A DNA stretch of 58,924 nt, counting the filler, from Candidatus Hydrogenedentota bacterium (GTDB lineage: Bacteria; JBFMHD01): the NCBI GenBank assembly GCA_040752395.1. It is 4 parts of 4 records of this genome, joined end to end, with 100 filler letters (N's around TTAATTAATTAA, not from the genome) between each part and the next. Parts side by side here need not be neighbours in the genome. Positions count along the whole stretch, not along the records: positions 15,505 to 30,780 come from JBFMHD010000055.1; 3 more parts are not named here. One strand, written 5' to 3'. The notes below the pieces were generated by a model that was given only the letters and a program-made list of their open reading frames with translations, made no database searches and was not told the origin of the DNA. Positions within the stretch are counted from its first letter, which is position 1; the number at the start of each line of letters is the position of its first letter. This document shows positions 17,527 to 27,076 of the stretch, one piece after another. A program made the position numbers and the translations under genes.

Positions 17527-17635
17527 ATAATATAGGGTAAAACCCCACATCAGGCGACATCCTTTTGAATGTCGCCCCAGCCTTTAAAAAGGCCGGGGGA
17601 GATTGGAAATTGAAAGTGTGGGAGTAAATAGTATT

Positions 17636-18130
17636 ATGAAAGAGTTACTATTATTGTTGCAACGGGTATTGGAAAAAGAAATAGAGATATACGATGAATT
17701 TTTAAATCTCGCCAATTTAAAAAATAAGGTTCTTATAGAGCAGAATATTGAAAAACTTGATACCATAACAAAAAAAGAAGAAGAGAAAATACTTGAACTT
17801 AAAATTTATGAGGAGAAAAGAGAAGAGATAATTAAAAAAATAAAAGAGAAGATAGGGTTAAAAGAAGGGGCAAAGCTTGAAGATATCTTAAAAGAAACAG
17901 GTGAAAAATGTGAAGATTTAATTGAAATCAGGGATAAACTAAAAAGTAAAATTTTAGAAGTAAAAGGATTAAACGATGAAAATATGAAGATGATAGAGAA
18001 TACATTATCTATAATTAATAAGACGATGAAAACATTGGGAGAACTTACTAAAACAGGTAAATCCTATACAAAAGAAGGCAAAGTCGAAAAAACAGGTGAA
18101 GAGACACGAACTTTTGATACAGAGGTCTAA
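17636..18130 (+). CDS. flgN: Flagellar export chaperone FlgN
   Basis: Helical ~165 aa directly before flgK; C-terminal YTKEG...FDTEV; ATG 17636 with GGGAG SD. Confidence 0.85.
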   Translation: MKELLLLLQRVLEKEIEIYDEFLNLANLKNKVLIEQNIEKLDTITKKEEEKILELKIYEEKREEIIKKIKEKIGLKEGAKLEDILKETGEKCEDLIEIRDKLKSKILEVKGLNDENMKMIENTLSIINKTMKTLGELTKTGKSYTKEGKVEKTGEETRTFDTEV

Positions 18131-18135
18131 CTTTT

Positions 18136-20052
18136 ATGGTGAGCCCATTTTTTGGACTGGAGATAGCTAAACGAGGACTTGAAGCATCTCGTAAAGCACT
18201 TGATGTCATAAGTCATAATATAGCAAATGCTAATAATCCTGACTACTCAAGACAGGAAATAACCTTATCAACAACCGATCCTGTATTTCTACCTGCATTA
18301 AGAAATAAGATAGACGCAGGGATGCTGGGGAGCGGTGTAGAAGTAGCTATGGTTGATAGAATTATAGACCCTTTACTCTCACAACGCATAGGTGATGCAT
18401 TACAGAAAAAATCAGGTTATGAAGAAGAAACTAATATATTAAAGCAACTTGAAGACATATTTGCAGAACCCTCAGATAATGGTATAAGAACAGCGATTGA
18501 TAATTTTTTCTTATCATGGAACGAGTTATCAAAGAATCCCGAGAGTATGGCTGCACGCGCAGCAGTAAGAGAGAGTGGTCAGACTTTAGGAGATGTATTC
18601 AGGGATATTTATACACGGATCCAGGATCTTGGTGGTGTTGGGATACCCGGGGATTCTGCTGTAGAAACAGCTATTTACGATGCTGTTGATGATATTAATA
18701 GAATAGGACTTGAACTCTCTGAGATTAATTCAAAGATAAAAGCTATAGAGATAACTGGTGATAACCCGAATGATTATCTTGACACAAGAGATGCCCTGAT
18801 TCGCGAGTTAAGCGAGATCGTTGATGTCTCAACATCTCAAACTGATGAGGATGAGTTCAGGGTGTTAATAGCTGGTCAGGTTCTTGTTCAGGGTAATCTT
18901 TTCAATGAAGTAAGTGCTATAAGAAACAGTGTCACTGACCATCTTGAAATATTTTCAAATCGCAGTAATTATCCTGTTTATGTAAAAGAAGGAAGACTCG
19001 CGATACTCCAGGAGATGGCTTATGAGTATATACCAGAAGTATTAAGTAAACTTGATACACTTGCTGAAAGCATTGTTACACGAGTGAACGATTTACATAG
19101 AGCAGGTTTTGGAATGGATGAACAGAGCCCAAGCACAGGGATCAATTTTTTTCAAGCATTTGATTCTGATCCTGATTCAGTAGAGGTATATTCTGTTACT
19201 GGCTCACAAACAATAATGTTTCCCGAGGTACCATTAAATGGAGATACTACAGACGCCTCGGTACCTGAGAATTTTGAGTATGACAATATAAATAGTGGTA
19301 GTTTACTTATTAATGGTTATCAGATAACTTATGATGCTGATAATGATACTATTTTAGATATAATCAGTAGAATAAACAGCAGTAATTCTGGGGTCATTGC
19401 ATGGCTTGACCCGTCAAACAGGCTTGTATTAAAAGCAACAAAAGATTCAAATTATGAGATACAGACATTAAGGGATACAGGTACACTACTTGAAAAATTA
19501 GGTATCACAGTGGCAAATGGGACTATCCCTGGCTCACAGGGACCTATTGTATCAAGAACCAATGATGGAGATATTATAAACGTAGCTCAACGAATCGAGA
19601 GACCGCCATCTTTAACTGGTCTTGCATTATATATAGAGATTAGCGACGAGGTGATGCAGGATTTATCAAAGATCGCTGCGGCGAAAGGAACAGATACAGA
19701 CCTTGATGGTGATTGGGATGAGACATTAGGCCCGACTGATGGGTCGAATGCACTTGCCATATCAGAGTTAAGGAACGAACTTGTTATGAGTGGGGATACC
19801 GCATCTTTTTCAACATATTATAATTCTCTGACCTCAGAGATAGCTGTAAAGAGTGCTACAGCTAAAAGCAATTATGAACGCAGTGAAGATGAGGTCCTCA
19901 GTCTTAAGAATTTACGAGAGTCTATAAGTGGGGTTTCGATAGATGAAGAACTAACAAACCTTATAAAATTTCAACGCGGGTTTGAGGCAAATGCACGAGT
20001 AATTCGTACTCAAAACGAGATACTTCAGATTTTGATGACAATTGGAGAATAA
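18136..20052 (+). CDS. flgK: Flagellar hook-associated protein FlgK
   Basis: SHNIANANNPDYSRQ N-terminus; SGVSIDEELTNLIKFQ C-terminus. Confidence 0.96.
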   Translation: MVSPFFGLEIAKRGLEASRKALDVISHNIANANNPDYSRQEITLSTTDPVFLPALRNKIDAGMLGSGVEVAMVDRIIDPLLSQRIGDALQKKSGYEEETNILKQLEDIFAEPSDNGIRTAIDNFFLSWNELSKNPESMAARAAVRESGQTLGDVFRDIYTRIQDLGGVGIPGDSAVETAIYDAVDDINRIGLELSEINSKIKAIEITGDNPNDYLDTRDALIRELSEIVDVSTSQTDEDEFRVLIAGQVLVQGNLFNEVSAIRNSVTDHLEIFSNRSNYPVYVKEGRLAILQEMAYEYIPEVLSKLDTLAESIVTRVNDLHRAGFGMDEQSPSTGINFFQAFDSDPDSVEVYSVTGSQTIMFPEVPLNGDTTDASVPENFEYDNINSGSLLINGYQITYDADNDTILDIISRINSSNSGVIAWLDPSNRLVLKATKDSNYEIQTLRDTGTLLEKLGITVANGTIPGSQGPIVSRTNDGDIINVAQRIERPPSLTGLALYIEISDEVMQDLSKIAAAKGTDTDLDGDWDETLGPTDGSNALAISELRNELVMSGDTASFSTYYNSLTSEIAVKSATAKSNYERSEDEVLSLKNLRESISGVSIDEELTNLIKFQRGFEANARVIRTQNEILQILMTIGE

Positions 20053-20055
20053 TGT

Positions 20056-22050
20056 ATGACTTTGCGGGTAACACAAAACAACCTTTTTAATAATTCGTTA
20101 TATTACATACAGCAGAATCAACGAGAATACGATGATCTTCAGCTTCAATTAGCAACAGGTAAAAAAATTCATAGACCATCAGATGACCCGGTAAACTCTG
20201 CAAGAATACTTGCTCTAAAGACTGATCTAAAAGAGATGGAAAAATATAAAGAGAATATAAAGAATGGGGTCGATTTGTTAAACATCTATGATTCTACTAT
20301 GGATAAAGCTCAAGAGATAGCAAAAAGAGCAAGAACTTTAGCTATCCAGGGCGGGAACGATACTTTAACACAAAGCGATCGAGAGTTAATAGCTACTGAG
20401 ATAGACCAGCTTATAGAAGAAGCTGTTAGTATAGCAAATACAAAATATGAAGGGAGATATATTTTTGCAGGCGGAGAACAGCTGGATCTACCGTTTAATG
20501 GCGACCCGTTTACAGTTACAAGAGATAATTCAAACAGGATTACCGATGTGCAGTTTGTGGGGAATAAAGCAGCTATATACAGGGAGTATCAAGAAAATAA
20601 AAATGTTCAGGTTAATATTTTTGGTGATGAAGCCTTTTATGCTCAAAATGAGGTTGTAACTACAGCCTCTACAATAATTAATCAGAGCGGGAACCCGGTT
20701 GTTGTTCAGAATGCTGCACGCGAACTGGATGTATATTTTCCTGATAGCCCGACTGAAGGCTATTTCAGGATAAATGGGGTCGATATTTATTATGACAAAG
20801 ATGGTCAGGGTATTACTCAGGGGGATTCTTTACTCGATATAGCAAACAGAATAACTCAATCAGAAGCTGGTGTCACAGCAAGGGTTGTAGGAGAACTTGA
20901 GGGTTATGCGGGTTTTGCTGACCCTGATGCTGCTATCGGGTTTCCACCAGCAGCTAATGGAGATAACAGTATCTCAATAAATGGTGTCAGTATAGAATTT
21001 AATGTTAATGATTCGCTTAATGATATTATTACAAGACTTAATAATGTTTCAGACAAGACAAATGTCACTGCATCAACTGAAGAGGATGCTTTAGGGAATT
21101 ATCATATAGTTTTAAGTGGCGGTGTGGAGATAGATGATGTTGCTGTACCGCCAAAAGCAGGTGTCTTTACAACGCTTGGTATAACAACAAGTGACCAGAC
21201 AGGTGTCTCGTATCCGAATAATCTTATAAAGCAGGTTATATCCTCCAATTCTGTAAATGATCCAACAGCTCCTTTAAACACACAATTTTCAGGTGCAATA
21301 AATGGGAACATTAACATAAATGGGGTTGATATAGCTGTTAATGTGAATAATAGTTTAATAGCGTTAGCTGCTCAGATCGATGCTTTAGCGGGTATAACCT
21401 CTTATGTTAATAATGATAATCAGCTTGTGATATCAGGTGCGAATATAAGTATAGATACATTAGCCCCACCACCGCCAGCAGCACCACAATCAAATATCTT
21501 TGATGAGAATAGACTCGGGATTATGAGTTCAACCGCTCAGGATATAGCTATTAATGGTCCAGCGTATCAGCTTTCCTTAACAACAAATAATCCGGGACAG
21601 ATATCGATGGAAGACATTAATGGAGGCAAGTTTTTAACACAGGATTTGATGCTTATAGATGAATTAAGAAAGCCTGCAAATAATTATTCGGATCAGGCAA
21701 CGCTTGAGAGGATAACTCTTTTCGAGGCTTTAATAAGATTGCGGGATGACTTGATAACTGGTGGTTCTGCACTTGATGACGTGCGAGGCAGAGATATAGA
21801 ATACCTTGATAATTATCTTAATAATTCAGGGGGGGTACGCACTACAGTTGGTGCGAGAGTAAATAGATTAGAGGAAGCAGAAAACCGACTTGAAGATTAT
21901 ACTATTACAACAACCGATGCATTAAGCAGATTAGAAGACGTGGATTTAGCAGAAGTTATAAGTGAGTTACAAAAACATAGTATTATGAGTCAGGCCTCTT
22001 TAGCTGCAAGTTCAAGAATATTTCAGACAAGTTTACTAAATTTTCTATGA
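20056..22050 (+). CDS. flgL: Flagellar hook-associated protein FlgL (large, 664 aa)
   Basis: QLATGKKIHRPSDDP, GRYIFAG, VGARVNRLE, SLLNFL. Confidence 0.95.
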   Translation: MTLRVTQNNLFNNSLYYIQQNQREYDDLQLQLATGKKIHRPSDDPVNSARILALKTDLKEMEKYKENIKNGVDLLNIYDSTMDKAQEIAKRARTLAIQGGNDTLTQSDRELIATEIDQLIEEAVSIANTKYEGRYIFAGGEQLDLPFNGDPFTVTRDNSNRITDVQFVGNKAAIYREYQENKNVQVNIFGDEAFYAQNEVVTTASTIINQSGNPVVVQNAARELDVYFPDSPTEGYFRINGVDIYYDKDGQGITQGDSLLDIANRITQSEAGVTARVVGELEGYAGFADPDAAIGFPPAANGDNSISINGVSIEFNVNDSLNDIITRLNNVSDKTNVTASTEEDALGNYHIVLSGGVEIDDVAVPPKAGVFTTLGITTSDQTGVSYPNNLIKQVISSNSVNDPTAPLNTQFSGAINGNININGVDIAVNVNNSLIALAAQIDALAGITSYVNNDNQLVISGANISIDTLAPPPPAAPQSNIFDENRLGIMSSTAQDIAINGPAYQLSLTTNNPGQISMEDINGGKFLTQDLMLIDELRKPANNYSDQATLERITLFEALIRLRDDLITGGSALDDVRGRDIEYLDNYLNNSGGVRTTVGARVNRLEEAENRLEDYTITTTDALSRLEDVDLAEVISELQKHSIMSQASLAASSRIFQTSLLNFL

Positions 22051-22157: not shown

Positions 22158-22640
22158 TTGAGAATCAAAACTAAACCCTATGGTGAAGTTGAAATAAATG
22201 AAGCTAATATTATAAAAATAGTTGATGGTTTATTTGGGTTTCCTGGTCTTGAAAATTATGTATTTCTGGAGTCAAAAACAGAGGGTCCCTTTTTATGGCT
22301 GCAGAGTCTTGACGAGCCAGGATTGGCATTTGTGGTTATCAGACCCGAAGAATTTAAAGCAGATTATAAACTAAGCGTTGCACTTGAAGACATTAAATCA
22401 ATAGGTTTAGAATCACCGGATGAAGCTGTAAGCATTGCATTAGTTGTGATTCCTCCTGACCCGAAACAGATGACCGCAAATCTTCAAGGACCGATTGTGC
22501 TGAACGTACAATCCAAAATCGCAAGACAGATGATATCATTAAATCCTGAATATAAAATAAAACATCATATATTAGATGAGATGAAAGTTTTACTCGAGAA
22601 AACCAAAGAAGGAATGCATAAAGAGGAAGTGAAGGATTAA
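22158..22640 (+). CDS. fliW: Flagellar assembly factor / CsrA antagonist FliW
   Basis: [21 protein letters not shown]; directly upstream of csrA. Confidence 0.95.
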
Positions 22641-22885
22641 TGCTTGTTTTAGCAAGAAAGATTAATCAATCTATAATGATAGGTGATAATGTTGAAATTG
22701 TTATTGTTGATGTACAGGGTGACCAGGTAAAAGTTGGTATTCAGGCGCCTAAAGAAATTAAAATTTTTAGAAAAGAGATATATGATGAGATACAGCGAGA
22801 GAATATACTCGCAGCGAGCGCATCGGAAAAAGCACTTGAAAAAATAGAAGAATTACTACCTAAAAAGAAAGACAGAGAAAAGTAA
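22640..22885 (+). CDS. csrA: Carbon storage regulator CsrA with C-terminal extension
   Basis: MLVLARK...SIMIGD...[19 protein letters not shown]...ENILA. Confidence 0.97.
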
Positions 22886-22946
22886 TAACACAGGTATAGA
22901 TAGAAGACAGAAGTAAGAAGTGATACGAAAAAAAATAAAAAAATAT

Positions 22947-22973
22947 TAAAGTTTTAATAAAGTTTGTCGATAA
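22947..22973 (+). promoter_or_regulatory. sigma28 promoter for flagellin 1 (leader ~325 nt)
   Basis: TAAA-N15-GTCGATAA. Confidence 0.8.
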
Positions 22974-23093
22974 TATTAATGAATAGGCCTTGTAATGTTT
23001 TTATAATTCTTTTAATTACAAGGATTTTTTCGGTAAGGAAACCGGGAAACTAAAAAGTATTCCAGGGATGGTTTTAATTAAATTTGAATTCCC

Positions 23094-23131
23094 AAAACCC
23101 TGGTAAATAGAAAGTTTCCCAGGGTTTTTTT
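23094..23131 (+). terminator. Intrinsic terminator-like hairpin inside the flagellin 1 leader
   Basis: aaaaccctgg / ccagggtttt stem with T7 tract, between promoter and start codon. Confidence 0.65.
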
Positions 23132-23264
23132 ATTTTATAATGTAATTTTGTGTTCTTTCAAAACTAAATTATTTAAGAGGTAGTTAGACCAACTACCAGG
23201 ATATAGATAAAACTCAAGAAGTGACAGGAGTAGAAGTCCAAGGGAGAGAGCGAACTTACAGGAA

Positions 23265-23297
23265 TGACAAGGATGTCAAATTTATGAATCAAGGAGG
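23265..23297 (+). promoter_or_regulatory. CsrA-binding hairpin and SD-overlapping CsrA site of flagellin 1
   Basis: tgaca-AGGA-tgtca hairpin, then ATCAAGGAGG. Confidence 0.75.
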
Positions 23298-23306
23298 AAA
23301 AAAACC

Positions 23307-24269
23307 ATGGCATTTAGAGTTAATTCAAACATTCCCGCTCTCTTTGCTCAGAGACAACTCACAATAACAAACTTCAAAGTACAGAAGAATATTGAGCGAT
23401 TATCCTCTGGTTACCGCATCAATAGAGCAGCTGATGATGCAGCAGGGTTAGCAGTCAGTGAAAAATTAAGAACACAGATAAATGGTATAAAACAGGCAAG
23501 ACTGAATGTTCAGGATGGTATCTCTTTAATCCAGACAGCAGAAGGTGGTCTTCAAGAGATACAGGATAATTTACACAGATTACGAGTTTTAGCAATCCAA
23601 TCAGCAAACGATATCTTAACTACAGTTGATAGATATCTAATCCAGCTTGAGTTTAATCAGGTTCTTGATGAGATAGACAGAGCTGCTTCCTCAGTACAAT
23701 TTAACACCAAACAATTGTTAAGAGGAGCATATTCTCTGGATATGGTAAGTAATCCTTCAGGAACTAATAATACTTATCCAGGTAGTTTAGTGCTTCACGT
23801 AGGTGCGAATGCGAATGATACCATAGCTATTCATATACCGAGCATATCGACAGCAGCTTTGGGAACGGTTCATGGCCAGTTTAGCTCCCCTTCCGGTATA
23901 AAAATATCATCATTAAGGGTTGATAACGTAACAGGGTATAATACAAGATTATCGATACTTGCAGCGAATGCTGGTGTGATGACACGAAGAGCAGCTGAAT
24001 CAGCAATCGGTATAATAACAAGCGGTATAAATATGGTTTCTGAAGTAAGAGCGAACCTTGGTGCGTGTCAGAACAGATTAGAGTCAACATTTAATTTCTT
24101 GGGTGTTGTGCTTGAAAATATAACGAGTTCTGAATCAAGAATCAGAGATGTTGATGTAAGCGCAGAGGTGGTAGATTTTACTAAGAACCAGATATTAGTT
24201 CAGACAGGTACAGCAGCGTTAGCTCAAGCAAACGTAGCACCGCAGACCGTTTTGCAGTTGTTACAGTAA
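23307..24269 (+). CDS. fliC: Flagellin 1 (320 aa)
   Basis: ERLSSGYRINRAADDAAGLA, QNRLE, ESRIRDVD, LAQAN...VLQLLQ. Confidence 0.97.
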   Translation: MAFRVNSNIPALFAQRQLTITNFKVQKNIERLSSGYRINRAADDAAGLAVSEKLRTQINGIKQARLNVQDGISLIQTAEGGLQEIQDNLHRLRVLAIQSANDILTTVDRYLIQLEFNQVLDEIDRAASSVQFNTKQLLRGAYSLDMVSNPSGTNNTYPGSLVLHVGANANDTIAIHIPSISTAALGTVHGQFSSPSGIKISSLRVDNVTGYNTRLSILAANAGVMTRRAAESAIGIITSGINMVSEVRANLGACQNRLESTFNFLGVVLENITSSESRIRDVDVSAEVVDFTKNQILVQTGTAALAQANVAPQTVLQLLQ

Positions 24270-24296
24270 AACCAGTATTAAAGTAAGGGGTTAAAA

Positions 24297-24334
24297 GATC
24301 CTCTGATATTAGCTCAGAGGATCCCCCCTTTTTT
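24297..24334 (+). terminator. Terminator after flagellin 1
   Basis: gatcctctga / tcagaggatc then C-run and T6. Confidence 0.7.
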
Positions 24335-24350
24335 AAAATAAACTAATCAC

Positions 24351-24418
24351 AAAGCCTCATAAAACATTCTCTTAACCGTGAAAAACGGTTAAGAGACATA
24401 GTGATTTTATGAGGCTTT
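24351..24418. repeat. Long two-part inverted repeat
   Basis: aaagcctcataaaa/ttttatgaggcttt (14 bp) enclosing tctcttaaccgt/acggttaagaga (12 bp), loop gaaaa. Confidence 0.8.
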
Positions 24419-24810
24419 TGGCGTTCTTTGAAAAAATAATATTAACATTCATTGCCAAAATTAAGCTACAATGTTAGGCGAGATTCTTTTTTTGTCGAAT
24501 TGCAAATTGAAGATTGCAAAAATGAAATCAGTTGAACTTCTCAACTTTTTCGAAAGAGAGTGAATAAATTTGCAATTTACAATTGAGCGGAGCGACAAAT
24601 TGTTATGGGACCTATCCTGCAGATGACTTTCTTTATTAATCCCGGCCCCTGTCATAGATAAGGGGAGAAGAGGATTATGGCGAGATTCTCTTTTTATAAA
24701 AGAAAGTTAACCAGGATAAGGTTTTTTATAAAGGAGGAGTAAACCTCTAGTTAAAAAATCCGTGAGAGAAAGGCGTCTCTTACGAAAAAGAACATCAAGG
24801 AGGGTGTATT

Positions 24811-25632
24811 ATGGCTTTCCATTTAAGATCAAACATTGTTGCGGACTTTGCCCGCAGAAACCTTGGCTTAACAATAGCAAGACAGAACCTGGCTCTTGAA
24901 CGATTGACCTCTGGTCTTCGTATCAACCGTTCAGCTGATGATCCTGCGGGTCTGGCAGTGAGTGAACGGTTAAGAACGCAAGTTCTTGGGCTACATCAGG
25001 CACAGCGGAACTCGGAGGATGCTATAAGTCTCGTTCAGATAGCTGAAGGAGGTCTTCAGCAGATTGACGAGATTATTCAAAGAATGAGATCTCTCGCTAT
25101 CCAAGCAGCAAATGCTACTTTAACAAGTGCAGATAGAACATTGGTTCAGGTTGAGATTAATCAGCTGATAGATGAGATTGACCGTCAGGCGTCTTCAACC
25201 CAGTTCAATACCAAGAAGATATTTACACAGAATCAATCCTTAACATTTCACGTAGGTGCTAACCGAACAGATACTCTAACACTCCAGATTTCATCGGTTA
25301 CTGCTGCGGGTCTTGGGGTAGATACCGTAGATGTTACTGGTTCAAGTAACGTGAATGCGTTAAAGGCGATCTCACAGCTTGACACAGCGCTTGACAGGAT
25401 AAACACTCAGAGAGCAAATTTAGGAGCGTTCCAGAACAGACTTGAAAACGTTGTCAATTTCATTGGGATATCTAGTGAAAATATGGCTTCAGCATTAGCA
25501 AAGGTACGAGAAGCTGATATAGCTGAAGAAATAGTGAATTTCACAAGAGAGCAGATATTAGCTCAGACAGGTACTGCGCTACTTGCTCAAGCTAACCAGA
25601 CACCGGCAACAGTCTTAGCTTTGCTTACGTAA
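24811..25632 (+). CDS. fliC: Flagellin 2 (273 aa, minimal D0/D1)
   Basis: ERLTSGLRINRSADDPAGLA, LGAFQNRLE, LLAQAN. Confidence 0.96.
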   Translation: MAFHLRSNIVADFARRNLGLTIARQNLALERLTSGLRINRSADDPAGLAVSERLRTQVLGLHQAQRNSEDAISLVQIAEGGLQQIDEIIQRMRSLAIQAANATLTSADRTLVQVEINQLIDEIDRQASSTQFNTKKIFTQNQSLTFHVGANRTDTLTLQISSVTAAGLGVDTVDVTGSSNVNALKAISQLDTALDRINTQRANLGAFQNRLENVVNFIGISSENMASALAKVREADIAEEIVNFTREQILAQTGTALLAQANQTPATVLALLT

Positions 25633-25690
25633 CCTTTAAGTTCACTCGCCAGAATCAGTTCCAAGACAAAAAGTTGTCTTTTTTGAAAAT

Positions 25691-25728
25691 AAAACGAGCC
25701 AGGAGAACAGGGGCCTCCTGGCTGTTTT
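25691..25728 (+). terminator. Terminator after flagellin 2
   Basis: agccaggag / ctcctggct then gtttt. Confidence 0.6.
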
Positions 25729-25740
25729 AACACATCTAAT

Positions 25741-25903
25741 CAGTTATGGGTATAGAAGTAAGATAACGAAAGAAGCAAGAAGCAAGAGGCACAGAGGCAC
25801 AAAGTTGGTTTCAGGCTCCGGGCTTCGAGCTTCAGCCGGCTGTAGTCCGTAGCCTGTAGCCTGTACCCCGAATTATTAGAGTGACAGCGTTTTTCAGAGG
25901 AGG
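25741..25903 (+). repeat. Mosaic copy of modular heptamer repeat
   Basis: cagttatggg...agaagcaagaagcaagaggcacagaggcac...caggctccgggcttcgag...gtagcctgtagcctgt...gtttttcagaggagg. Confidence 0.9.
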
Positions 25904-26161
25904 TGAGAGGCGAAAAGATTCTTTTCATAGAACATAACAAGGAAATGCGGGATGTTATGGTGATGAAAGAACCACGGATGGTTCTGGTTCTTTTTAATCT
26001 TTCCTTAAAGACCCGCTGTTAAGATAGAAAACAGCAGTTTTCGATTGGCAGAATGGGTTTTGGTTCGCGGCGCGATGCCAGAACCACTTATAATTTCATA
26101 GTTTTATAACTTTAAATAAGGAAAGAGCGTAGTTTTCACTTAATCAAGGAGGGACTCATTT

Positions 26162-27076
26162 ATGGCATTTAGAATCAATACAAACATTCCCGCAATGTTT
26201 GCAGAACGTAATCTTACCATAACTAATAGGAACGTTGAAAAGAACATTGAGAAACTAAGTTCAGGTTTAAGAATCAATGTTGCAGCAGATGATGCTGCGG
26301 GTCTTGCGATTTCTGAAAGATTAAGAACTCAAGTAAATGGTTTGCGTCAGGCAAGACTGAATGTCCAGGATGGTATCTCATTAATCCAGACAGCAGAAGG
26401 TGGTATCTCAAATATCGGCAACTCGTTACAAAGATTAAGAACATTAGCGGTCCAGGCAGCGAATGATGTTATGACCACTATTGACCGTTATATGATTCAG
26501 CTTGAGTTTAACCAGCTGCTCGACGAAATAGACCGCCAGGTATCTTCAACTGAGTTTAACACCAAGAAATTGCTGACAGGTGTTTACAATACTGGTGGTA
26601 ATATAGGAAGTCTTGTCTTGCAGGTTGGAGCAAATAAAAACGATAAAATAAGCATACAGATTCCATCACTGTCCACGGCCAGTTTAGGTACGGTTCTTGG
26701 GTCAGGACAACCCGTGGGTGTTTATCTATCAGCTTTAAGAGTTACGGGTGATAGAAGTACAATATTAGGGACAAACCGCGGTGTGATGACTCGTGTTGCA
26801 GCGAACTCAACTATTTCTGTGCTTTCGAGCGCGATAAACTTAGTTTCTGAGACACGAGCAAAACTCGGCGCCTTACAAAACAGACTCCAGACAACTTTTG
26901 ATTTTCTTGGCATAGCGCTTGAAAACCAGGCTGCGAGTGAATCAAGAATCAGAGATCTGGATATAAGTTATGAGGTCGTTGAGTTCACCAAGAACCAGAT
27001 ATTAGTGCAGACAGGCGCGGCTGCATTAGCCCAGGCTAATGTTGCACCACAGTCTGTACTTCAGTTACTACAGTAA
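26162..27076 (+). CDS. fliC: Flagellin 3 (304 aa), closest to flagellin 1
   Basis: EKLSSGLRINVAADDAAGLA, LQNRL, ESRIRDLD; shares ARLNVQDGISLIQTAEGG and GVMTR with flagellin 1. Confidence 0.97.
   Translation: MAFRINTNIPAMFAERNLTITNRNVEKNIEKLSSGLRINVAADDAAGLAISERLRTQVNGLRQARLNVQDGISLIQTAEGGISNIGNSLQRLRTLAVQAANDVMTTIDRYMIQLEFNQLLDEIDRQVSSTEFNTKKLLTGVYNTGGNIGSLVLQVGANKNDKISIQIPSLSTASLGTVLGSGQPVGVYLSALRVTGDRSTILGTNRGVMTRVAANSTISVLSSAINLVSETRAKLGALQNRLQTTFDFLGIALENQAASESRIRDLDISYEVVEFTKNQILVQTGAAALAQANVAPQSVLQLLQ

Follow-up and report, generated by a model that had tools for sequence, protein, structure and literature searches.

In the Hag-FliW-CsrA switch of Bacillus subtilis, CsrA is the repressor of flagellin (PMC7652899). 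The same source describes the E. coli pgaA leader, where CsrA bound at two sites remodels the RNA, resulting in premature Rho-dependent termination. In Campylobacter jejuni, the sigma-28-driven flaA leader of a FliW-type system carries ANGGA hairpins and is both a target and a titrator of CsrA (PMC4894983); this leader is 45 nt long and has no terminator, and the titrator is the full mRNA, not a prematurely ended RNA. C. jejuni also has sigma-28-dependent sRNAs, FlmE/CJnc170 (PMC11187230). RNAs of this kind are made from FliA promoters, some of them derived from flagellar 5' UTRs, and act by base pairing; none has been reported to involve CsrA sites or a terminator switch. In E. coli, they include MotR, FliX, and others transcribed from FliA promoters. 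Protein-mediated attenuation is known from the trp leader of B. subtilis (TRAP) and from pyr leaders (PyrR), where the bound protein covers the 5' strand of an antiterminator and the overlapping intrinsic terminator forms. We found no report in the literature of CsrA acting in this TRAP/PyrR-like manner; the modes described in the literature searched are control of translation, of mRNA stability, and of Rho-dependent termination.

We analyzed a window of 58,924 nt (the whole stretch of DNA under study) from a Candidatus Hydrogenedentota bacterium; the features given below from fliW to flagellin 1 lie on its plus strand. By Pfam, a flgN-flgK-flgL-fliW-csrA array is followed there by three flagellin genes. 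The fliW (22158..22640; PF02623, E = 1.6e-35) and csrA (22640..22885; PF02599, E = 1.1e-24) genes stand directly 5' of a 330-nt sigma-28 leader, which lies between csrA and flagellin 1 (23307..24269; 320 aa, Flagellin_N and Flagellin_C). The csrA product has 81 aa and a long C-terminal tail, presumably the tail seen in FliW-partnered CsrA. The locus resembles B. subtilis hag in its flgK-flgL-fliW-csrA-flagellin order and in having a sigma-D/sigma-28 promoter ahead of the flagellin gene that adjoins fliW-csrA. It also has one CsrA-type GGA in a hairpin loop upstream of the Shine-Dalgarno (SD) sequence (gac-AAGGAU-guc, 23267-78, a hairpin formed in the leader minimum free energy [MFE] structure) and one within the SD itself (caAGGAGGA, AAGGAGGA, 23290-98), as hag does. 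To our knowledge, the hag leader is short and has no internal terminator. The present leader differs in that this translational operator comes after 150 nt holding two more CsrA-type sites and a pair of terminator and antiterminator.

The promoter, TAAAGTTT-N11-GTCGATAA (22947..22973), was recognized by sequence pattern and matches 15 of the 16 bases of the enteric sigma-28 consensus; transcription would start near 22979-22981. A FliA/WhiG sigma factor is encoded in the genome (TIGR02479, 290 bits against a cut-off of 189.6), and the same promoter form followed by TATTAATG recurs at two further places in it, C113 and C291. The loose pattern TAAA-N15-17-CGATA occurs twice in the window against 3.16 expected occurrences and is thus not enriched; the full 16-base form alone is informative. 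A promoter scan found no sigma-70-like site on the plus strand from 22758 to 26247, and a pattern scan together with reading of the sequence found no CGATA-type -10 element 3' of the terminator (after 23131); the sigma-28 promoter is thus the sole recognizable promoter for flagellin 1. A TATAAT at 23136 was considered as a second flagellin-1 promoter and set aside, as it has no -35 partner by the scan criteria, although an unusual promoter may have escaped these scans.

Downstream of the start site, the leader folds into several elements, and the promoter, hairpins, and terminator listed in an earlier note on this DNA were all recovered where it had placed them, beyond chance expectation. P1, near the 5' end (22988..23023; -9.4 kcal/mol), is a 9-bp hairpin (ccttgtaat/attacaagg, 22988-22996 with 23015-23023) that closes an AU loop of 18 nt; UUACAAGGAU lies in its 3' arm, and both G residues of the GGA at 23022 lie inside the stem. 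It is followed by hpA (23026..23049; cggt-AAGGAA-accg), a putative CsrA site delimited by prefix folds and masks, whose 9-bp stem (23026-23034 with 23041-23049) presents the hexaloop AAGGAA at 23035-23040. Site B (23062..23071; cca-GGGA-tgg, CCAGGGAUGG, read as CAGGGAUG, with its GGA at 23066-68) forms a hairpin that is weak by itself (-1.0 kcal/mol); folds and masks mark it as a putative site for CsrA and as the putative 5' strand of an antiterminator. The intrinsic terminator C:D (23094..23136; -15.9 kcal/mol) has canonical form, with 23094-103 paired to 23119-128, an inner 4 bp (23105-08 with 23114-17), and a tail of seven U residues (23125-31) followed by A and UUUU; having a loop of more than 8 nt, it escaped a simple terminator scan. 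The remaining 175 nt, the proximal flagellin-1 leader (23132..23306, delimited by sequence, MFE, and motif count), contain a hairpin at 23179-23197, uuACAGGAAUg at 23257-67, and the two hag-like sites described above.

The terminator competes with a second structure. The earlier note had proposed that site B and the bases after it pair with the terminator 5' arm. The core of this pairing is real, namely, CCAGGG (23062-67) with CCCUGG (23098-103) in an antiterminator hairpin B:C (23062..23103; -14.0 kcal/mol), while the proposed guuuu:aaaac extension did not hold up; the additional pairs are UGG:CCA (23069-71 with 23092-94) and UUUAA:UUGAA (23073-77 with 23084-88). B:C and C:D are mutually exclusive, sharing the strand 23098-23103. 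A further helix, absent from the earlier note, joins segment A (23032..23051) to 23113-23134 in the MFE structure, and folding indicates that this outer helix A:D is incompatible with the terminator and with hpA alike. The antiterminator plus the outer helix therefore make up the MFE structure of the whole element (-47.1 kcal/mol, z = -4.45, with none of 200 shuffles as low). At equilibrium, the free RNA forms the antiterminator, with a probability of the terminator pairs of 0.000; when the upstream part alone was dinucleotide shuffled, the median P(terminator) was 0.97, and none of 200 shuffles fell as low as 0.000. The upstream part thus out-competes the terminator.

The bases on which this competition depends coincide with GGA motifs. 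Masking the triplets 23037-39 and 23066-68, and nothing else, flipped the fold cleanly: P(terminator) was 0.00 for the free RNA and 0.94 for the masked one. For the prefix that ends at 23124, the decision-relevant length, the B:C core forms with a probability of 1.0 in the free RNA; blocking 23066-68 alone lowered it to 0.12 and brought the terminator core, at 0.00 without the block, to 0.81. A scan with 3-nt masks identified 14 of 111 that flip the fold, every one on AAGGAAACCGGGAAA or CCAGGGA, together spanning three of the four upstream GGA motifs. A CsrA-type motif hence overlaps the antiterminator strand, and masking it selects the terminator in silico. We note that equilibrium folding approximates cotranscriptional folding poorly and that the terminator (-15.9 kcal/mol) and antiterminator (-14.0 kcal/mol) are close in energy, so that strand displacement could yield substantial protein-free termination.

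These similar energies would also suit an unremarkable element: a plain terminator of the flgK-flgL-fliW-csrA operon that doubles as a leaky insulator with fixed read-through from the sigma-28 promoter, CsrA acting only on translation at 23257-23298 and the alternative folds serving as stability or processing structures without a role for CsrA. It is true that csrA is the last gene of the operon, that the stretch from 22885 to 23094 has no other terminator, and that gac-AAGGAU-guc and the SD, the best of the CsrA sites, are 3' of the terminator, in the manner of the B. subtilis hag leader (PMC7652899). This explanation nonetheless appears unlikely to us. A loss of terminator pairing that none of 200 shuffles reached, with the sensitive bases falling on GGA motifs, is not what it predicts, and a plain operon terminator should have the flagellin promoter downstream. 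To see where the promoter lies elsewhere, we turn to 15 distinct csrA-flagellin spacers, from other uncultured lineages. A terminator is present in 12 of these, and in 10 of the 12 it is preceded by a sigma-28-type promoter, with at least two ANGGA motifs in between, so that the order csrA, sigma-28 promoter, CsrA sites, terminator, leader, flagellin is found in 10 of the 15 spacers.

The switch-like behavior recurs in two of them. L110 and L114 represent two genera of one candidate phylum, and in both a CsrA-like site (CACAGGGAUG/UACAAGGAUGU) base pairs to the loop of the terminator and to its inner 3' arm. P(terminator) is 0.01 in L110 and 0.11 in L114 (none of 200 shuffles as low in either), and masking GGA alone restores it to 0.99 and 0.89, a GGA-dependent flip as in the window. 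All 20 antiterminator cells of these two sequences are paired; with L118 added, 26 of 30 are, the four misses all being in L118, and three sequences offer weak covariation. The L110/L114 switch and that of the window are analogous, not homologous. Conditional termination is not family-wide, since for five of the seven other family members the predictions give a terminator that is unconditional or does not depend on GGA (L140 to L142 were outside these tests): P(terminator) is 0.98 in L102 and 0.99 in L118, stable whatever the upstream sequence, and the mask test revealed no GGA-specific effect on the terminator in L068 or L073. For the window itself, a search of 61 genomes for close DNA relatives returned only chance-level short matches outside its own genome, and a FliW search of genome contigs returned one locus, which was spurious; the nearest FliW is 65% identical (P0002). 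As no alignable relative was found, the B:C pairing of the window rests on one sequence. The nearest lineage with DNA compared (L088, L092, and L129; FliW, ~52% identity; flagellin, 57 to 66%) has no terminator in its leaders.

An arrangement of promoter, CsrA sites, and terminator is also the layout of an sRNA gene. The region could encode a stand-alone, sigma-28-dependent, CsrA-binding sRNA of ~155 nt (22979 to ~23133) with a constitutive terminator, flagellin 1 being transcribed from its own unrecognized downstream promoter; such an RNA would titrate CsrA when the late flagellar genes switch on, adding an RNA antagonist to the FliW system. Elsewhere in this genome, C113 is a stand-alone sigma-28 promoter with a short RNA and a terminator, and the C. 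jejuni flaA leader RNA titrates CsrA (PMC4894983). In the G119 family (four genera), the corresponding RNA forms two hairpins whose loops are invariably AAGGAW/AAGGAU; the first hairpin is paired in 24 of 24 cells, with compensatory changes at four of seven pairs, the GGA motifs have unpaired probabilities of 0.58 to 1.0, and the terminators are strong and unrelated in sequence. The decoy reading fits better there. L140 to L142 likewise combine strong terminators with exposed GGA loops, and with an unconditional terminator and exposed GGA, the short RNA of some other lineages resembles a decoy. L102 and L140 to L142 fit the description of CsrB, CsrC, and RsmX/Y/Z as short noncoding RNAs with their own promoter and terminator and GGA in loops.

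The RNA of the window differs from CsrB, CsrC, and RsmX/Y/Z in having four GGA motifs, mostly paired, in lacking an Rfam match, and in its sigma-28 promoter, where theirs are of the GacA/UvrY type. The earlier note had suggested a CsrB-like decoy here, a suggestion that loses ground because the released RNA buries its GGA motifs (unpaired probabilities at equilibrium, 0.00 to 0.33 for all four). No promoter is recognizable in 23132-23306, and the strong, nonrandom competition between upstream site and terminator would be purposeless if termination were constitutive. We consider the sRNA explanation improbable for the window. The motif counts are in keeping with this assessment in that the 153 nt from the start site to the terminator hold 4 GGA where 1.5 are expected (P of ~0.07), making this part alone only mildly GGA rich. 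The earlier note had counted at least six further GGA before the start codon, and there are seven between the terminator and the ATG (at 23199, 23227, 23243, 23261, 23271, 23293, and 23296), where 1.7 are expected. More specific motifs stand out over the whole 328 nt, with 4 CARGGA (0.16 expected; at least 4 occur in 6 of 109,502 sliding genome windows) and 3 CARGGAU (0.06 expected).

At gathering score, Rfam yielded 0 matches in the window and 0 in seven related loci. CsrB, CsrC, RsmX, RsmY, and RsmZ were absent among the 19 Rfam matches at E values up to 10. A flagellin-leader module (GAGG-AGUAAA-CCUC / UAAAAA / AGGGAG hairpin) is present in L110, L114, L118, L078, L068, L073, and the flagellin-2 leader of the window. 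A covariance model of this module, R1, gives the flagellin-2 leader (24733-85), a training member, 49.3 bits, and found no other convincing match across the genome. Homology of hpA and site B to the module was considered and rejected: R1 scores 23045-23077 at just 8.2 bits (E = 2), and the resemblance is by eye only.

Could something other than CsrA operate the switch? A leaderless 24-codon frame (22979-23053) begins with an ATG exactly at the predicted start site and stops 9 nt before site B; a ribosome at this stop would cover B and favor the terminator. Temperature or another factor would be further candidates. The best sub-threshold Rfam matches are leader-peptide and protein attenuators, His_leader (28.6 bits, gathering 49) and PyrR (27.4 bits, gathering 54), and we rejected both as chance-level. 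The frame has no SD and is not kept, being reduced to 7 codons in L068 and 4 in L073 and missing from L102. TATTAATG also follows the sigma-28 promoters at C113 and C291, so that the ATG may be part of the promoter context. A real switch with a non-CsrA operator thus seems very improbable, and CsrA is the likely operator.

We therefore favor, at a probability of about 0.45, a reading of the sigma-28 leader of flagellin 1 as a TRAP-like, CsrA-promoted transcription attenuator. The corresponding claim of the earlier note is supported as far as computation goes, by the GGA masks, the prefix test, and the same logic in L110 and L114. In this model, transcription would begin near 22979, and P1 and hpA would fold. 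Segment C (23092-23103), on emerging, would pair with site B (23062-23071) to form the antiterminator, leaving the terminator 3' arm without a partner until it pairs with segment A, and polymerase would continue into the proximal leader and flagellin 1. Free CsrA would be expected in FliW systems when FliW is bound up with flagellin that has not been secreted. The hpA loop AAGGAA and site B, whose GGA motifs are spaced 29 nt apart, could then be bound by a CsrA dimer; B could no longer pair with C, hpA would be kept closed, and C:D would form, stopping transcription at ~23131. Transcripts that escape would still meet the usual repression of translation, exerted at gac-AAGGAU-guc and the SD. 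CsrA binding, termination, and the direction of control are predictions of this folding model. As proposed, it is like TRAP and PyrR in placing a protein on the 5' strand of an antiterminator that overlaps an intrinsic terminator; it is unlike them in the protein and the motif and bears no sequence relation to either. It likewise differs from pgaA, where CsrA exposes rut sites for Rho; the signal here is a predicted hairpin-plus-U intrinsic terminator.

Taken more broadly, it is conceivable, and we put it forward tentatively, that FliW-type CsrA also controls elongation of flagellin transcription through GGA sites on antiterminator strands, switching on an intrinsic terminator, and that this design arose at least twice, in the lineage of the window and in the G321/G401 lineage. 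Both would be part of a broader, so far undescribed class of RNAs located between csrA and flagellin that are driven by sigma-28, bear CsrA sites, and end prematurely; in other lineages, these RNAs would act as decoys. The order of promoter, CsrA sites, and terminator in several deep uncultured lineages is a comparative result that is independent of the switch reading and points to an RNA-element family covered by no Rfam model. CsrA is among the most widespread bacterial RNA-binding regulators. If the decoy reading holds in those other lineages, CsrA, until now thought to be antagonized only by FliW and full-length flagellin mRNA, would also be met by RNA decoys. If the attenuator reading is true, a CsrA-operated intrinsic terminator would be a new mode of CsrA action, placing CsrA beside TRAP and PyrR among attenuator proteins, and the flagellin-FliW-CsrA loop would, beyond blocking translation, spare the cell the expense of producing one of its most abundant mRNAs.

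The source genome is metagenome assembled (2.84 Mb, 34.8% G+C), and the leader studied here lies on its contig C301, in a flagellar neighborhood assigned by Pfam: flgN (17603-18130), flgK (18136-20052), flgL (20056-22050), fliW (22158-22640), and csrA (22640-22885), followed by flagellins 1 (23307-24269), 2 (24811-25632), and 3 (26162-27076). Scanning both strands of the 421-nt spacer between csrA and flagellin 1 (22886-23306) revealed no ORF of at least 50 aa. Among the genomes compared, the nearest kinship is only "same domain," and the best FliW match among the collected proteins reaches 65% identity. The promoter TAAAGTTT-N11-GTCGATAA (22947-22973) matches the enteric sigma-28 consensus at 15 of 16 positions, in agreement with the earlier note, and a FliA/WhiG gene is encoded in the genome. 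A loose sigma-28 pattern has 163 matches genome-wide; the best of these, at 22947-22973 and on contigs C113 and C291, share TATTAATG after the -10 element. Downstream of the C291 promoter, a 45-nt leader with GGA leads into a 233-aa ORF; further matches lacking TATTAATG belong, by eye only, to a FliD-like (C46) and a MotA-like (C50) gene.

The C113 promoter (L002:1519-1645, equivalent to G000:C113:10058-10184) is a second perfect TAAAGTTT-N11-GTCGATAA, and its start context, TATTAATGAA, is shared with the flagellin 1 promoter. Next comes a short terminated RNA of ~90 nt with no GGA, whose strong terminator consists of agagccgggt/acccggctct and a T run; no downstream ORF is present on that strand, and the RNA is a candidate sigma-28-dependent small RNA. 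At G000:C171:3131-3290, a sigma-28-like promoter, TCAACTTT-N12-GCCGATAA, is followed by ~115 nt holding a C-rich, anti-SD-like CCCCUCCC and by a terminator; this may be another small RNA of the flagellar regulon.

The elements proposed earlier for the flagellin 1 leader, a 5' hairpin (P1, 22988-23023), a hairpin with an AAGGAA loop (hpA), a second putative CsrA site (site B), and an intrinsic terminator (23094-23131), all fold as described; a simple terminator scan missed the last solely through its 8-nt loop limit. Segment B (23062-71) can pair with segment C (23092-103) to form an antiterminator (-14.0 kcal/mol), and C can pair with segment D (23113-34) to form the terminator (-15.9 kcal/mol), the two being mutually exclusive. 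The hpA loop is part of segment A (23032-51), which can pair with D over 8 + 12 bp; A:D is incompatible with hpA (23026-34 paired with 23041-49) and with C:D, and B:C is nested inside it. In this analysis, an equilibrium folding of one single sequence, the minimum free energy structure of the whole element combines P1, A:D, and B:C (-47.1 kcal/mol, z score of -4.45). Prefix folds place hpA first, B:C once C emerges, and A:D last, and none of those of the free RNA contained the terminator. When the terminator was kept fixed and the upstream part alone was dinucleotide shuffled, the median probability of the terminator pairs was 0.97, versus 0.000 for the native sequence, and none of 200 shuffles was as low.

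As the earlier note had anticipated, the fold responds to the GGA triplets: with pairing barred at both (23037-39 and 23066-68), the terminator probability was 0.94, and masking either site singly gave 0.93 to 0.94 in the whole element. In the free prefix to 23124, which stops short of the U tract, the B:C core stands at 1.0 and the terminator core at 0.0. Masking 23066-68 alone shifted these values to 0.12 and 0.81, respectively, whereas masking 23037-39 alone had no effect, which points to site B as the primary sensor. When a 3-nt mask was moved along the sequence that precedes the terminator, 14 of 111 positions flipped the fold, all on AAGGAAACCGGGAAA or CCAGGGA.

Judged by its sequence, site B is both a good CsrA word (CAGGGAUG), with the SELEX-type consensus RUACARGGAUGU as the yardstick, and the antiterminator strand. 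The hpA hexaloop, AAGGAA on a 9-bp stem, lies 29 nt 5' of the site B GGA, a spacing that presumably suits one bridging CsrA dimer. The whole transcript contains four CARGGA (0.16 expected) and three CARGGAU (0.06 expected); four CARGGA is the genome-wide maximum, attained in 6 of 109,502 sliding windows. GGA itself is only mildly enriched 5' of the terminator (4 versus 1.5 expected), and the leader 3' of it has 7 versus 1.7 expected, bearing out the claim of at least six further motifs before the start. The proximal half of the leader (23257-23298) has the features of a conventional hag-type operator for translational control by CsrA.

With a FliW alignment as query, a metagenome scan yielded 80 loci with flgL-fliW-csrA synteny, among which a sigma-28 promoter right after csrA was found only where a flagellin follows (L068, L073/L074, and L078). 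Genome searches brought in G119 with three sister genera (L102/L139, L140, L141, and L142), G321, G401, and G415 (L110, L114, and L118, respectively) of a 25-genome candidate phylum, and G132 (L131). We surveyed 15 distinct spacers with a flagellin directly after csrA, leaving out L074, L088, L129, L115, and L139 as duplicates, L091, L126, and L132 because an additional gene or over 1 kb intervenes, and L125, in which csrA was not found. A hairpin-plus-U terminator lies within 12 of the 15 spacers and was not found in L092, L103, and L120; 10 of the 12 have a sigma-28-type promoter 5' of the terminator with at least two ANGGA between. These counts are not independent, since the spacers represent about nine lineage groups, of which six have the layout and three lack it; the L092 group, the closest retrievable lineage, is without a terminator. 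The hairpin could simply end the csrA operon, as the earlier note allowed. Such a terminator would be expected before the next promoter, yet in those 10 of 12 spacers the promoter precedes it.

Several other features were seen in these regions. A 24-codon frame (MNRPCNVFIILLITRIFSVRKPGN, 22979-23053) has its first base right at the inferred transcription start, stops 9 nt before site B, and is not retained by the related loci. Between csrA and the sigma-28 promoter of L068 (4270-4340), tandem 7-mers, five GAGGATA and then four GATAATA, place five GGA in the would-be csrA 3' UTR. The flagellin 2 leader (24733-24803) contains GAGG-AGUAAA-CCUC, UAAAAAA, a second hairpin, and then AAGAACAUCAAGGAGG; this module is near-identical in flagellin leaders of G321, G401, and G415, related in L078, L068, and L073, and looks like an uncatalogued element conserved in flagellin leaders. 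Upstream of flagellin 2 are two copies of GGCGAGATTCT(C)TTTTT (24477-24496 and 24679-24697). For flagellins 2 and 3, neither a sigma-28 promoter nor a clear sigma-70 promoter was seen. The ~100-nt intergenic repeat between these genes (25735-25905) looks REP- or MITE-like, with 598 BLAST hits on 247 of the 349 contigs of the source genome.

In the window, L110, and L114, a CsrA-type site 5' of the terminator is complementary to a portion of it; in the latter two, the predicted partners of the site (CACAGGGAUG and UACAAGGAUGU, respectively) are the loop and the inner 3' arm of the terminator. Their terminator probabilities are 0.01 (L110) and 0.11 (L114), with none of 200 shuffles as low for either, and masking the GGA alone raised them to 0.99 and 0.89; fold-flipping masks are centered on the CsrA-type sites. 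In all three loci, the released RNA is predicted to keep its GGA buried. A three-sequence alignment of L110, L114, and L118 has the terminator helix paired in 30 of 30 cells, with two compensatory pairs, and the antiterminator paired in 26 of 30; the four unpaired cells of the antiterminator all belong to L118, and this helix shows little covariation. For most family members, conditional termination is not predicted.

A second class, with L102, L140 to L142, and L118 as members and L068 and L073 as less clear cases, has strong terminators, GGA independent where tested, and GGA in open hairpin loops. L102 has a terminator probability of 0.98, and L118 has one of 0.99; L140 to L142 are assigned strong terminators from hairpin folds, the probability and mask tests having covered other loci. 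In G119 and its sister genera, GGA is unpaired with a probability of 0.58 to 1.0, and the first hairpin keeps an AAGGAW loop on a covarying stem (24 of 24 cells paired, 4 of 7 pairs compensatory). Terminator sequences are unrelated from genus to genus, so that the terminator persists despite sequence drift; by eye, no conserved promoter-like block was seen 3' of the terminators in this class. Upstream of the short RNA, L140 (1100-1330, minus strand), L102, L141, and L142 have near-consensus sigma-70 (TTGACA-N17-TATAAT) and sigma-28 promoters in tandem. The proximal leader of the G119 family has a conserved hairpin with a GGGUGA loop and a CAUUAG(C/U)A:U(G/A)CUAAUG pairing that spans the start codon and shows compensatory changes from genus to genus.

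On these modeled folds, the short RNA of the exposed class looks like a CsrA decoy, the nearest precedent being the Campylobacter jejuni flaA leader, which titrates CsrA (PMC4894983). A decoy role for the window RNA, which the earlier note had tentatively added to attenuation, is unlikely, because after termination this RNA is expected to refold into A:D plus B:C, hiding its GGAs. The attenuator part of that interpretation remains plausible given the flip upon GGA masking and is the best-fitting reading for the window; we put the probability that this leader is a CsrA-operated transcription attenuator at roughly 0.45. Its distal half would work like the TRAP and PyrR attenuators. It also resembles in spirit the Rho-dependent effect of CsrA at pgaA (PMC7652899), with the difference that the predicted switch uses an intrinsic terminator. 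A full-text literature search found no CsrA-operated intrinsic-terminator switch in the portions retrieved, including those of PMC7652899, PMC4894983, and PMC8060035; in the review PMC7652899, "terminator" is used once, for CsrB, and "attenuation" is absent. At the gathering score, no Rfam family matched in the window or in seven related loci. In the proposed switch, free CsrA would cause termination in the flagellin 1 leader, in agreement with CsrA acting as a flagellin repressor when unsecreted flagellin holds FliW (PMC7652899).
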